Source of the DNA: Rickettsiales bacterium
GTDB taxonomy: Bacteria; Pseudomonadota; Alphaproteobacteria; Rickettsiales; JAJNBL01
NCBI GenBank assembly: GCA_021156175.1
Contig: JAJNBL010000002.1
Span: forward strand, 197,029 to 261,028
Length of the DNA: 64,000 nt
Direction: 5' to 3'
In this document: one piece after another, positions 1,437-58,990 of the stretch
Numbering within the stretch: the first letter of the stretch is position 1
Layout: each line of letters opens with the position of its first letter
The notes under the pieces: model-generated
What the model saw: the letters and a program-made list of their open reading frames with translations, nothing else
Databases searched by the model: none
What the model was told of the DNA's origin: nothing
Position numbers and translations under genes: made by a program

Positions 1437-1558
1437 CTTTTCGCTAGGCTGAGTTGGAAAATGCCGTTTTTCCTTAAAGCCGGAGCGGAGCGTACTTCAA
1501 GGTATGTGAGCAACGGAAGTCAGGAAAACGGCATTTAACAACCAGCATTGTAGAAAAG
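1437..1558. repeat. nested-palindrome intergenic element, family A long form (copy A1)
   Basis: About 122 bp, near-identical in architecture to 45814-45935. Shared ends CTTTTCGCTAGGCTGAG...CAGCATNGTAGAAAAG. Core GAGCGTACTTCAAGGTATGTGAGC at 1488-1511. Arm 1459-1473 pairs with 1523-1536. Confidence 0.75.
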
Positions 1559-2629: not shown

Positions 2630-2631
2630 GT

Positions 2632-2758
2632 TATAGCATTTTCGCTTTAAGTGTAGACCAGGAGCGCAAGGTGAGGAGGCCGTAAGCGTAGTCAATCTAC
2701 GTGCAGATCGACAAATCCGATGCACGACGACGTATACACTTAATTGGAGAATGCTATA
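2632..2758. repeat. palindromic intergenic element, family B (copy B1)
   Basis: 127 bp. Terminal inverted repeats TATAGCATT (2632-2640) and AATGCTATA (2750-2758). The central ~60 nt (2664-2723) is nearly identical to the reverse complement of 46952-47079. Confidence 0.8.
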
Positions 2759-2759
2759 A

Positions 2760-11061: not shown

Positions 11062-11109
11062 TGCGCCTCCTATGCTATCCAAGAAGCATAACCTAACTCT
11101 CGAGGCCCC

Positions 11110-11685
11110 ATGTCCCCCAAACTCCTTTTCCTCTCTGGCAGTATCCGCAAAGAATCCTTCAACAGCAAACTCATCCGCGAAGCTGTCGCTCTCGCAAAAG
11201 AAGCGGGGGCGAAGGTCACCTTGATTGATTTAAAAGATTTCCCCATGCCCATCTATAATGGCGATCTGGAAGCCGAATCTGGTCTGCCTGAATCCGCCAA
11301 GAAGCTCAAAAAACTGTTTATTGAGCATACAGGCTTTATGATTGCCTCACCGGAATATAACAGCTCAATTTCGCCACTGCTTAAAAACTCACTCGACTGG
11401 ATTTCCCGGAAAGAAACTCCCGATGAGCCAGGCCTTATTGCTTTCACGGGAAAAGTCGCTGGCTTAGTTGCTGCCTCCACCGGTGGCTTCGGCGGTCTTC
11501 GCGGCCTTGTCCCGCTTCGTATGATGCTGAGTAATATCGGCGTATTCGTAATTCCAAGTCAACTTGCGATCCCTTTTGCCGATAAGGCTTTTGACGCCGA
11601 AGGCAAATTCGTTGAATCCAAACAACGCGAATCCTTACGTGGTGTGGTGAAGCAATTTATCGAGACAGCAAAGAAGTTTGCGTAA
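11110..11685 (+). CDS. NAD(P)H-dependent FMN reductase family protein
   Basis: 191 aa; LLFLSGSIRKESFNSKL N-terminus and EYNSSISPLLKNSLDW motif of the flavodoxin-like FMN reductase family. Confidence 0.8.
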   Translation: MSPKLLFLSGSIRKESFNSKLIREAVALAKEAGAKVTLIDLKDFPMPIYNGDLEAESGLPESAKKLKKLFIEHTGFMIASPEYNSSISPLLKNSLDWISRKETPDEPGLIAFTGKVAGLVAASTGGFGGLRGLVPLRMMLSNIGVFVIPSQLAIPFADKAFDAEGKFVESKQRESLRGVVKQFIETAKKFA

Positions 11686-11737
11686 TCATAAACCTTCCGA
11701 TATTATGCCTTGTTCTCGTATTTATAAGGTTCTGTGG

Positions 11738-11862
11738 AGATTCAAAAAAATCATGAGGTGATTTTTAGGAATTTTCGCACGCAGAGCCGCAGTGTACATA
11801 AAAGTACATGAGGATTCGAGTACGAAAATGACGCAAAAATTGACCATGAGAATTTGAATATC
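11738..11862. repeat. diverged family-A-like nested palindrome (copy A5)
   Basis: Outer inverted repeat GAGATTCAAA / TTTGAATATC; inner arms AATTTTCG / CGAAAAT. Core GTGTACATAAAAGTACAT (11792-11809) resembles the A core. Confidence 0.5.
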
Positions 11863-11873
11863 TTGGAACCTAT

Positions 11874-17016: not shown

Positions 17017-17095
17017 GAAAAAAGGAGATTTCAAGACCTGTAGCGGAGCGTACCTTAAGGTACGTAAGCAACAGCAGCTTAAAAATCTCCTTTTT
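17017..17095. repeat. family A short form (copy A3)
   Basis: Core GAGCGTACCTTAAGGTACGTAAGC (17047-17069), flanked by GAAAAAAGGAGATTT ... AAATCTCCTTTTT arms. Confidence 0.7.
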
Positions 17096-18600: not shown

Positions 18601-18616
18601 TGTTTCACGTGAAACA
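18601..18616. other. parS centromere-like site
   Basis: TGTTTCACGTGAAACA, a perfect 16-bp palindrome matching the parS consensus; extended palindrome 18599-18618. Confidence 0.85.
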
Positions 18617-24936: not shown

Positions 24937-25887
<951 letters not shown>

Positions 25888-30191: not shown

Positions 30192-30650
30192 GATGACACT
30201 CTACAATTTCCCACGTCTTTTTGAAAAGCCCTTATACATTTTTTTTCACGAGAAGTATCCTACTATCTAATAAGTATTTATTAGAGAAATAAAGTAGAGG
30301 TAATAGTTGTCCTTCCGGATATGGGGATACAATAGTTTACACGGAGTTTTCCACATAGTGATGGGAGTTGAAAATAGTTGGGGATAATTATGGGGATATA
30401 GAGTATAAGCTATTGTTATTGTATTAAAAATAATAGGGTTTATATATATAGTTATAAAGGACATTACTACTTACTCCCATTATCCCGATCCCTACTTAGC
30501 AACTTATCCTCAGGGGATAAATCATGAATCACTTGTGGTATTTTTGTTGAGAAAACCCCTTTAGCTGCGTAAGATCACTTTCGCACAGAGTTATGCAAGC
30601 GGTTATCCTCACGCTTATCCACAATTTTAGAAATAAATGATTTAACACCT
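30192..30650. other. candidate chromosomal replication origin (oriC)
   Basis: 459-bp non-coding gap between hemE and the RP001/PDRP homologue. Perfect DnaA box TTATCCACA at 30615-30623; at least 7 one- or two-mismatch boxes; AT-rich core about 30400-30470. Confidence 0.65.
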
Positions 30651-38742: not shown

Positions 38743-38783
38743 CGCTCTTTACTTTCTGTTAAAACGCAATTATGGCGAGGGAT

Positions 38784-38863
38784 TTTTTTGAAATCAGGTT
38801 CTTAAAAAGCGGAGCGTACTTAAAGGTACGTGAGCATTATTTAGGGTTCTGATTTCGAAAAAA
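38784..38863. repeat. family A short form (copy A4)
   Basis: Core GAGCGTACTTAAAGGTACGTGAGC (38813-38835), flanked by TTTTTTGAAATCAGG... / ...CTGATTTCGAAAAAA arms. Confidence 0.7.
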
Positions 38864-45813: not shown

Positions 45814-45935
45814 CTTTTCGCTAGGCTGAGCCGGAAAATAGTAATTTTCCTAAAGCCGGAGCAGAGCGTACTTAAGGGTACGTGAGCACAGGAAGTTAGG
45901 AAAATTACTAGTTAACGGCCAGCATAGTAGAAAAG
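45814..45935. repeat. family A long form (copy A2)
   Basis: Same ends and core as 1437-1558. Arm TAGTAATTTTCC (45839-45850) pairs perfectly with GGAAAATTACTA (45899-45910). Confidence 0.75.
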
Positions 45936-45940
45936 AAACC

Positions 45941-46954
45941 ATGCGTATCCTAGCCATTGAGAGTAGCTGTGATGAAACCGCGGTCGCGATTGTAAGCGAT
46001 ACCCGCGAAATCCTTGCGCATACGGTCGTTTCCCAATTAGAAGAACATCGCCCCTATGGTGGTGTGGTGCCGGAGATTGCAGCCCGGTCGCATATTATGC
46101 ATCTGGATCAGCTGGTTGCAAAGACATTGAAAGATGCTGGTTTAAGTTATTCCGATCTCGATGCGGTGGCGGCAACGGCGGGCCCAGGATTGATTGGTGG
46201 CGTGATGGTAGGCGTGATGACCGCCAAAGCCATTGCGAGTGCGGCTTCCCTTCCCTTCATCGCTGTGAATCACTTAGAAGGCCATGCGCTGACCATTCGC
46301 CTCACCGATAACCTTCCCTTTCCTTATCTTCTCCTCCTTGTTTCCGGCGGGCATTGCCAATTATTGGCGGTGGAAGATGTTGGAAAATATCAGCGCTTAG
46401 GTTCTACGATCGATGATGCGCTTGGGGAAGCTTATGACAAGGTCGCGAAGATGCTGGGTTTGGGTTATCCGGGAGGTCCCAAGGTTGAGCAATATGCGCT
46501 TAAAGGCAATGCGAAGCGTTTTGCACTCCCTCGGCCATTGCTTGGGCGCCCAGACTGCAATTTTTCTTTTTCCGGCTTAAAAACGGCTGTTAAACGCGAA
46601 GTAGATGCATTGGGCGAAGGACTTTCCAGGCGAGATGCAGAAGATATCTGTGCCTCCTTCCAAGCGGCGATTGGTGATGTGCTTAACGATCGCGTTGCTC
46701 GGGCGTTAGTGCAGTTCTCAGCACTCTATCCCGATGCAAGACGCTTTGTCCTTGCGGGTGGCGTTGCGGCAAATCAGTATATCCGTGGAAGGTTAGAGTC
46801 GTTATTACGCGATCACGGATTTACACTTCATGCCCCTCCTCCGGCATTATGTACGGATAATGCCGCAATGATCGGTTGGGTCGGAGTAGAACTCTTCACC
46901 CGCGGCATTACCCATGACCTCGATATCGGCGCGCGCGCCATGTGGCCACTGTAG
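45941..46954 (+). CDS. tsaD: tRNA N6-adenosine threonylcarbamoyltransferase TsaD
   Basis: 337 aa; [15 protein letters not shown]-terminus; NHLEGH metal motif. Confidence 0.94.
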
Positions 46955-47079
46955 AGCATTTTCCATTTCCGTATATAGGTTGTCGGGCATCGGATTTGTC
47001 GGTCTGCACGTAGATTGACTACGCTTACGGCCTCCTCAGCTTGCGCTTCTAGTCTATACGGAAAGCGAAAGCGCTCTTA
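46952..47079. repeat. family B element, inverted copy (B2)
   Basis: Its reverse complement aligns over about 128 bp with 2632-2758. Its first 3 nt are the tsaD TAG stop codon. Confidence 0.8.
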
Positions 47080-47897: not shown

Positions 47898-47913
47898 TGT
47901 TTCACGTGAAACA
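47898..47913. other. parS centromere-like site
   Basis: TGTTTCACGTGAAACA; extended 22-bp palindrome 47895-47916. Confidence 0.85.
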
Positions 47914-54531: not shown

Positions 54532-54547
54532 TGTTTCACGTGAAACA
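54532..54547. other. parS centromere-like site
   Basis: TGTTTCACGTGAAACA; extended 24-bp palindrome 54528-54551. Confidence 0.85.
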
Positions 54548-56510: not shown

Positions 56511-57171
56511 GATACCTCCTACGGTAAAAGCACAAATTGATAAATATATTAGTGAAAATGTTTCACGTGAAACATTTGAGCGTCTCGATCAGTATGTCGT
56601 TGATCTTTTGCAATGGAACCAATCGATCAATCTTATCGGCAAGAATACGGAAGTTATGATATGGGATCGGCATATTTTAGATTCCGCCCAACTGCTTTCG
56701 CATATTCCTGAGCACACAAGAATCATTACAGATATCGGAAGCGGTGCGGGATTGCCCGGAATGGTGCTGGCGATTCTTGGGAATTTTTTGGAAGTACATT
56801 TAGTAGAAAGTGATCGAAGGAAAGCTCTGTTTTTGGAGGCGGTTGCTCCGCTTGGAGGAGATACGCGAGTGATCGTGCATAAGAGCCGGGCTGAAATTTT
56901 GGGTGCATCCGCGACATGGGAAAGCGATGTTATCACCGCGCGGGCCTGTGCGCCGCTTACCACATTGTTAGAACTTATCTCTCCTTTTATAGAAGGTAAG
57001 CAAAAAAAATGCTTATCACTCCTCCTAAAAGGGAGTAGTGTGGAGAAAGAGTTAGAGGAAGCAGCGCGTAAATGGAATATTCTTTCGTATGATGCCCATC
57101 CCAGCATTACACATGACGAGGGGCGAATTTTGGCGATTCAGGAATTTCATCTGCGTTCTAAAACCTCTTAA
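56497..57171 (+). CDS. rsmG: 16S rRNA (guanine527-N7)-methyltransferase RsmG (GidB)
   Basis: SAM motif [10 protein letters not shown]. Start ambiguous (ATG at 56476, 56485 or 56497). Contains a parS site read as NVSRETF. Confidence 0.88.
56559..56574. other. parS centromere-like site inside the rsmG coding sequence
   Basis: TGTTTCACGTGAAACA, identical to the four intergenic copies. Confidence 0.85.
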
Positions 57172-58974: not shown

Positions 58975-58990
58975 TGTTTCACGTGAAACA
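58975..58990. other. parS centromere-like site
   Basis: TGTTTCACGTGAAACA, starting 3 nt after the parB stop. Confidence 0.88.

Follow-up and report, generated by a model that had tools for sequence, protein, structure and literature searches.

Intergenic hairpin repeats in a Rickettsiales genome and their probable place in a widespread ERIC-like family

The seven hairpin elements found in a 64,000-nucleotide stretch of a Rickettsiales genome (the window) are probably dispersed non-coding repeats of a very widespread family that resembles the ERIC elements, with two of the seven representing a lineage-specific branch. We give this reading, including the mechanism proposed below, a probability of roughly 0.55. 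The elements possess a conserved apical structure with covariation and paired arms that differ from lineage to lineage, copies were inserted into spacers, and no gene is linked to them. The initial annotation of this DNA had divided the copies into families A (A1 to A5) and B (B1 and B2) and joined them through a common apical hairpin. What it overlooked is that family A belongs to a cross-phylum family with a core like the centre of ERIC and is not specific to this genome.

The seven elements of the window

All seven elements are intergenic and form long hairpins (fold z -4 to -8) of about 80 to 145 nt, and every long local inverted repeat of the window falls in one of them. Their positions are as follows.

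A1: 1437-1558, plus strand, 122-nt hairpin between fliE and fliQ; core at 1484-1512, GCGGAGCGTAC-TTCAAG-GTATGTGAGCA
B1: 2631-2759, plus strand, 129-nt hairpin element that fills the fliR-flhB spacer; apical hairpin at 2685-2703
A5: 11728-11870, plus strand, 143-nt hairpin (z -6.4) between an FMN reductase gene and cobS; core at 11787-11813
A2: 17019-17095, plus strand, short form flanked by two minus-strand genes, lpdA and a Mur-ligase-like gene; core at 17042-17070
A3: 38783-38863, plus strand, short form flanked by the minus-strand genes thiE and gloB; core at 38808-38836
A4: 45814-45935, plus strand, sister of A1, between eda and tsaD; core at 45860-45888
B2: 46952-47077, minus strand, sister of B1, between tsaD and a pilin-like gene; apical hairpin at 47007-47025

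The cores of A1 to A4 all match AGCRGAGCGTAC-N6-GTAYGTRAGCA on the plus strand (4 of 4). Together with the diverged copy A5, the five A copies are uniformly on the plus strand (5 of 5) and have the core form AGCGTAC-N6-GTAYGTR. The core of A5, CCGCAGTGTAC-ATAAAA-GTACATGAGG, was detected by covariance model only (16.8 bits, E 0.05); its pair 7:22 is T:A instead of C:G, and its flanks are akin to those of a subtype found in Holosporales. A1 folds with -54.9 kcal/mol (z -7.4) and scores 48.9 bits with the model built from C:G cores, R1. The arm differences between A1 and A4 are compensated. A2, A3, and A5 have about 30 apical nucleotides in common with A1 and A4, and their arms are unrelated yet paired. 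Those of A2 pair perfectly over 13 bp and bear no relation to the arms of A1 and A4, while those of A3 were found in no other copy. Read on the minus strand, the A2 arms (AAAAAGGAGATTT and AAATCTCCTTTTT) are followed by a T run and resemble an intrinsic terminator of lpdA that carries the core in its loop. Given this terminator-like appearance, the core module may be able to occupy existing hairpins or to insert into them.

The B1 core, AGCGTAGTCAATCTACGTGCAGA, lies at 2685-2707 on the plus strand, at the apex of the 129-nt hairpin, and its 19-nt stem-loop, AGCGTAG-TCAAT-CTACGTG, is identical in B2. The two B elements are 85% identical overall, with the differences mostly in the 19-bp basal stem, where four pairs are doubly compensated, two change to or from G.U, and none is broken. 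B1 is the only window copy noted with TA...TA flanks. Assembly breaks occur inside B1 in two independent assemblies. Contigs L247 (1-82) and L251 (8904-8975), both from the independent read set SRR35179664, end and begin within it, as would be expected if B were repeated elsewhere in that genome.

Pattern counts set the hairpin apart from the background of the window. AGCGTAS-N4-7-STACGTG has four matches against 0.00 expected and the looser GCGTAN-N4-7-NTAYGY has seven against 1.09, of which the match at 25070 is spurious. The six-bp stem GCGUAN/N'UACGU with a Watson-Crick closing pair is present in all seven copies. The full core, with the GC(R) clamp, tandem GA, and trailing A at the hairpin apex, is carried by A1 to A4 (47.6 to 49.7 bits with R1) and in diverged form by A5; B1 and B2 lack it and are aligned at model positions 16-34 only. 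With respect to their surroundings, A1, B1, A4, and A5 are co-oriented with their own operons and A2, A3, and B2 are antisense to both neighbours.

Two further features of the window were noted beside these elements. The sequence TGTTTCACGTGAAACA, the parS consensus bound by ParB, occurs five times exactly (18601-18616, 47898-47913, 54532-54547, 56559-56574, and 58975-58990; 0.01 expected), and these copies flank an mnmE-mnmG-rsmG-parA-parB cluster at about 53 to 59 kb. An AT-rich spacer of 460 nt at 30192-30650 adjoins hemE, coincides with a change in the sign of the GC skew, and contains TTATCCACA (30616) and several variants of TTATCCTCA and TGGGGATA. It is presumably the chromosomal replication origin, a position next to hemE being typical of Alphaproteobacteria.

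Core structure, covariation, and distribution

Modelled from its base upward, the apex would consist of a helix, an A.A mismatch, a 2-bp G-C clamp (G1C2:G26C27), a bulged R3, and the tandem G4.A25 and A5.G24 mismatches. Above these the model places a 6-bp stem running from G6.U23 to C11:G18 (5'-GCGUAS...SUACGU-3') and a variable loop. Of 122 copies, 120 have an A directly after the core; directly before it the base is mostly A, which gives the A.A mismatch, and the adjoining positions are paired in about 90%. The loop has 4 to 6 nt and is free in sequence. By eye the apex recalls a canonical K-turn, a likeness that we rejected because the bulge has one nucleotide and not three, and an 11-6-11 recombinase site, which we rejected because the loop length varies. 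Likenesses to the sarcin-ricin loop and, through an AGC triad and a G.U pair, to group II intron domain V were likewise seen only by eye.

According to the initial annotation, the closing pair of the hairpin is inverted between the families, C:G in A and G:C in B, and this swap constitutes covariation. Both statements hold. Three closing states, C:G, G:C, and T:A, occur across the wider family. A scan for cores with a non-C at position 11 and a non-G at position 18, which did not select for pairing, gave 59 G:C, 59 T:A, 2 T.C, and 1 G.T among the 121 matches listed. Of these 121 closers 118 are Watson-Crick pairs, and the swap seen between A and B is accordingly a normal, compensated state of the hairpin. 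The closing state varies in 8 of 62 clusters of related arm sequences, each with at least two states and the largest with all three, so the switches are repeated independent events. In copies that were found by the model and missed by the pattern, pair 1:27 has gone from G:C to A:T and pair 7:22 from C:G to T:A (the latter also in A5), each change being compensated; the compensated pairs of the core are thus 1:27, 7:22, and 11:18. The arms covary as well, with double changes at 15 of 34 arm pairs in one alphaproteobacterial subfamily. All of these covariation counts are drawn from pattern-selected sets and are to be read as such.

Exact-pattern scans located the core GCGGA-GCGTAC-N6-GTACGT-GAGCA at no fewer than 120 loci. 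The scan covered one genome per species with the pattern GCRGAGCGTAC-N6-GTAYGTRAGC, for which about two chance matches are expected, as estimated from information content. The matches listed include Rhizobiales, Rickettsiales, Holosporales, Nitrospirota, Desulfobacterota, Bacillota, Rhodanobacteraceae, and Binatota, with Mesorhizobium, Ochrobactrum/Brucella, Devosia, Nitrospira, Desulfobacterales, Clostridia, Paenibacillus, and Desulforudis among the taxa. Mesorhizobium, Ochrobactrum/Brucella, Paenibacillus, and Desulforudis are represented in the same listed matches by isolate genomes. In every match inspected the core is the apex of a hairpin, and the arms are lineage-specific and match the base composition of the lineage. 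Two loci contain tandem arrays, L005 (three copies with a period of 126 bp) and L056. Five matches lie in viral contigs; all are ordinary copies of the alpha type, in high-GC contigs.

A conserved internal-loop module was observed below the core in part of these elements, with the strands UUCGAGMAC-CCGG and CCGG-AAGCGCAG. Alpha-type (Mesorhizobium-type) elements carry its first strand in the 5' arm, whereas those of Holosporales (L030, L062, and L067) and Rhodanobacteraceae (L019, L033, and L047) and A5 carry it in the 3' arm. With its first strand on the opposite arm, the module is upside-down relative to the apex, an arrangement that simple DNA inversion cannot produce. The Firmicutes versions of the element (L004 at 1575-2275, L126, and L216; Paenibacillus-type) have a branched fold with the core arm and a second small hairpin, and they occur with two alternative 3' halves. 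In L004, two inverted copies flank an ORF for a 97-aa membrane protein.

No Rfam 15 family matched the window or 31 element-bearing loci, at either gathering or permissive thresholds, and a search of literature full text for core substrings, as DNA and as RNA, returned unrelated primers only. Two weak overlaps, RF03142 (15.5 bits) and RF00512 (31.5 bits), are both below their cut-offs. The RF03142 overlap (L2-Alphaproteobacteria leader; cut-off 37.8 bits) is at 1456-1526 of the window and depends on GCAAACGGAAGACAGAAA, the 3' stretch that is unpaired in that model and is akin to a motif in the 3' arm of alpha-type elements. The seed of RF03142 may include, or resemble, such repeats.

Relation to ERIC and the standing of the B elements

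By sequence comparison, the closest known relative of the core is the central hairpin of ERIC. The ERIC centre, as given by the standard ERIC-PCR primers, was found in 5424 of 5426 E. coli genomes at 100% identity. In the E. coli locus the centre reads CCCCAG-GA-GCTTAC-ATAA-GTAAGT-GA-CTGGGG, and its central inverted repeat, GGAGCTTAC-ATAA-GTAAGTGAC, has 14 positions identical to the core and one compensated pair. The top match of the variant-inclusive model R2 in a 3-kb E. coli locus is this same centre (11.8 bits, E 0.04). Its architecture is that of the A core (a helix, then tandem G.A/A.G, then a 6-bp stem opening with G.T), and its sequence is nearly so; like the present family, ERIC consists of imperfect palindromes of about 125 nt that are intergenic and dispersed and in which the centre is conserved and the termini are not. 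However, pair 8:21 is T:A in ERIC and G:C in the present family, the GC(G) clamp and the A.A mismatch of the A core are absent from ERIC, and the arms are unrelated, with whole-element alignments that are not significant (z 0 to 3). ERIC has been described as a MITE of about 127 bp, limited to Enterobacteriaceae and Vibrionaceae, flanked by TA, and with an RNase E-dependent effect on mRNA decay (PMC10969869, PMC3184786). In contrast, the present elements come from Rickettsiales and many other phyla, and TA flanks are not enriched among them. Because the centre is nearly the same, whereas the arms cannot be aligned and the host range and TA flanks are unlike, we call the family ERIC-like and not ERIC.

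Other named repeats can be set beside it. Bru-RS1 and Bru-RS2 of Brucella are palindromic intergenic repeats of about 103 to 106 bp with more than 35 copies, and canonical copies of the present family are found in Ochrobactrum/Brucella genomes (L016, L028, L063, and L069). Bru-RS1/2 may be the local Brucella name of the present family. MITEs such as Correia/NEMIS, RUP, and RPE resemble the present elements in their size, hairpin form, intergenic or intra-operon insertion, and absence of coding capacity, but they carry conserved terminal inverted repeats that match an IS, whereas in the present elements conservation across phyla lies in the apex and the termini are variable. An origin as IS-derived MITEs failed on this point: A1/A4, A2, A3, A5, and B have differing termini, as do the various lineages, and the window has no IS.

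The standing of the B elements is less straightforward. In the initial annotation the seven copies were united into one superfamily, and this stands in so far as the apical stem-loop is present in all seven. The likeness is also non-random, as had been claimed: B has all 12 invariant stem positions (A-GCGTA...TACGT-G) together with a paired closer, a combination that only 2 of 20,000 dinucleotide shuffles of B1 equalled (p about 1e-4). Nevertheless, B has no clamp, carrying GTAA for the GCGG and GCAG for the GAGC of the family, although the GCGG...AGCA clamp is near-invariant otherwise. Nor does a single covariance model, the check that the annotation had proposed, capture both families in full. 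R1 does not report B at E<=10, and R2, which includes the G:C and T:A variants, takes only the 18-nt hairpin (a local match at positions 16-34, 12.1 bits, window-wide E 0.75). B is thus not a full member of the core family and, since it keeps only the stem-loop, is at best a distant relative.

A second link proposed between the families was a left end containing TTTTCGCT. This octamer is present in A1, A4, and B1, but B2 has CTTTCGCT and A2 and A3 lack it; in the window as a whole it is not enriched (7 occurrences against 4.9 expected). A1/A4 and B1/B2 do have in common a basal YTC-GCT internal loop, which is found in one alphaproteobacterial subfamily elsewhere. A by-eye likeness between the interiors of B and ERIC was discarded, as its alignment is not above shuffles.

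It is conceivable that B is an unrelated palindromic repeat and that the likeness of its apex to the core arose fortuitously or through convergence on a stable GC/TA stem. The failure of R1 to find B and the short, low-scoring match with R2 would agree with this, as would the altered clamp, the local alignments of the whole B element with A and other family members that do not rise above shuffles (B1 z <2), and the absence of any match to the 21-nt B core in the scanned metagenomes. We consider it unlikely nonetheless. The rarity of the combination among shuffles has been given above, and the hairpin module sits at the exact apex of the 129-nt element. The stem of B, GCGTAG/CTACGT, is the same as in the 59 G:C variants of the wide family, its YTC-GCT loop is as in A1 and A4, and clamp-less hairpins exist in other genomes (L259, L050, and L111). 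In L259, a contig of a relative, the clamp-less hairpin TTTT-AGCGTAC-GAGTA-GTACGTG-AATTTTA is carried by each unit of a tandem repeat at 11100-11450, downstream of flhB, that is broken by a scaffold gap. Having the hairpin module in common with the family, B probably descends from the same system or answers to it.

Insertion into spacers and possible mode of action

Comparison with the spacers of relatives shows A1 and B1 to be insertions into flagellar-operon spacers. The fliE-fliQ spacer, which contains A1, is 142 nt here versus 15 to 21 nt in relatives, and the fliR-flhB spacer, with B1, is 130 nt versus an overlap or 14 to 88 nt. A search of these two spacers in the relatives with the model gave no match. 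In L248, a closer relative, an alpha-type copy closed by a T:A pair lies immediately upstream of fliQ. The FlhB of the window is 64% identical to that of the next relative.

We found no transposase, RAYT, or reverse transcriptase gene nearby; the genes of the window are housekeeping genes only, with no IS element among them. All-against-all clustering of 1014 ORFs that neighbour about 250 copies revealed no recurrent protein family. Of the copies between co-directional genes 45 were co-oriented with these genes and 49 opposed, a further 37 lay between convergent and 19 between divergent genes, and orientation relative to GC skew was likewise without bias (58 versus 70). No clear target-site duplications emerged: the flanks of 118 long elements were not enriched in TA and showed only a slight excess of direct repeats of 4 to 6 nt. 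A bias does exist in folding: with the core removed, the arms fold better on the core-sense strand in 188 elements versus 45. Shared ancestry affects these counts, and the bias persists at the level of the 62 arm clusters (51 versus 11). It also persists with DNA energy parameters, as tested on the window copies.

Our results suggest a mechanism in which the apex, rather than the termini, would define the family. Below it the arms would need only to pair, and they differ between lineages and within this genome. Because the core-sense strand folds better, the element would act as a strand-specific folded single strand. The apical module would be the recognition site of a putative trans-acting factor that is not encoded nearby. 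This factor could mobilise the element, or it could bind or process its transcript, for which ERIC and RNase E offer a precedent, and the two roles do not exclude each other. The B branch would have kept the apical stem, with the G:C closer that is common elsewhere, and the YTC-GCT loop, and would have replaced the clamp and the interior.

In principle, the elements could be mainly structured RNA and not mobile DNA. They could form a protein-binding or RNase-processing module of transcripts, for which ERIC in Yersinia is a demonstrated example, or a small RNA with its own transcription; the apex would in that case be a motif for RNA-protein recognition, K-turn-like on account of its tandem G.A pairs. 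The folding bias toward the sense strand, including its G.U pairs, would fit such a role, as would the compensated changes in core and arms, the conserved internal-loop sequences, the branched Firmicutes variants, and the co-orientation of A1, B1, A4, and A5 with operons. ERIC has also been reported to alter mRNA decay via RNase E (PMC10969869, PMC3184786). However, orientation is independent of flanking transcription, A2, A3, and B2 being antisense to both neighbours; Rfam offered no matching family; conserved promoters or terminators were not evident; and the invariance across phyla of Watson-Crick stem bases is unusual for RNA helices. We regard a mainly RNA role as possible but somewhat doubtful, and the lack of orientation bias argues against a purely cis-acting mRNA role in particular. 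The core might instead be a double-stranded DNA site for a dimeric protein, arranged as 11-6-11 like a dif or other tyrosine-recombinase site or like an operator, with an incidental palindrome. Its layout of GCGGAGCGTAC, N6, and GTACGTGAGCA, with 5 to 6 inner palindromic nucleotides and unlike outer parts, a spacer of free sequence, and stem bases invariant across phyla, is what such a site could look like. Yet spacers of 4 to 6 nt occur, covariation at the closing positions follows base pairing, pairing of the arms is maintained by compensated changes, and the stability of folding differs between the strands, all of which makes this explanation improbable.

The initial annotation had likened B to REP sequences, and mobilisation of REP/REPIN-type elements by a RAYT (Y1 HUH) transposase is the least probable of the explanations considered here, to the point that we give it hardly any weight. 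REP elements are likewise hairpins dispersed among intergenic regions, and for both kinds action as a single strand and mobilisation in trans have been proposed; strand-specific folding and the GTAG/CTAC of B would be in keeping with them. But REPs are GC-rich, are 20 to 40 nt long, and flank a single-copy RAYT gene, none of which was seen in the DNA covered here. By definition (PMC6006769) their GTAG or GTGG precedes the foot of a short GC-rich hairpin on the 5' side, at a distance of 0 to 2 nt, whereas the GTAG of B is inside the stem beside the loop, as its last four stem positions, and A has GTAC. The partner gene that had been suggested, of the Y1/RAYT/IS200-IS605 type, did not turn up either: there is no Y1 gene in the approximately 80 kb covered (the window and about 16 kb of flanks) or beside the roughly 250 copies, and few or no tnpA-Y1 genes are known in Alphaproteobacteria (PMC6006769). 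The absence of any orientation bias, including one relative to GC skew, also argues against lagging-strand single-stranded DNA transposition of the IS200/RAYT type.

Returning to the reading of dispersed ERIC-like repeats recognised by their apex, a near-identical central hairpin with about 20 invariant nucleotides, combined with lineage-specific arms and presence in many phyla, points to a common recognising factor. We tentatively propose, as one joint claim that is still on the unlikely side, that one widely distributed machinery, either a mobilising enzyme or a nucleic-acid-binding host factor, recognises the 29-nt apical module, and that ERIC, probably Bru-RS, and the elements of Alphaproteobacteria, Nitrospirota, Desulfobacterota, and Bacillota are branches of one ancient pan-bacterial class. 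If this were true, the apex and not the termini would be what defines the class, and its members might move or act via a strand-specific single-stranded intermediate. ERIC elements have served for strain typing for more than 30 years, and their spread and the conservation of their centre have so far been unexplained. The core also provides a compact annotation signature for a class of repeats that is absent from Rfam and breaks short-read assemblies.
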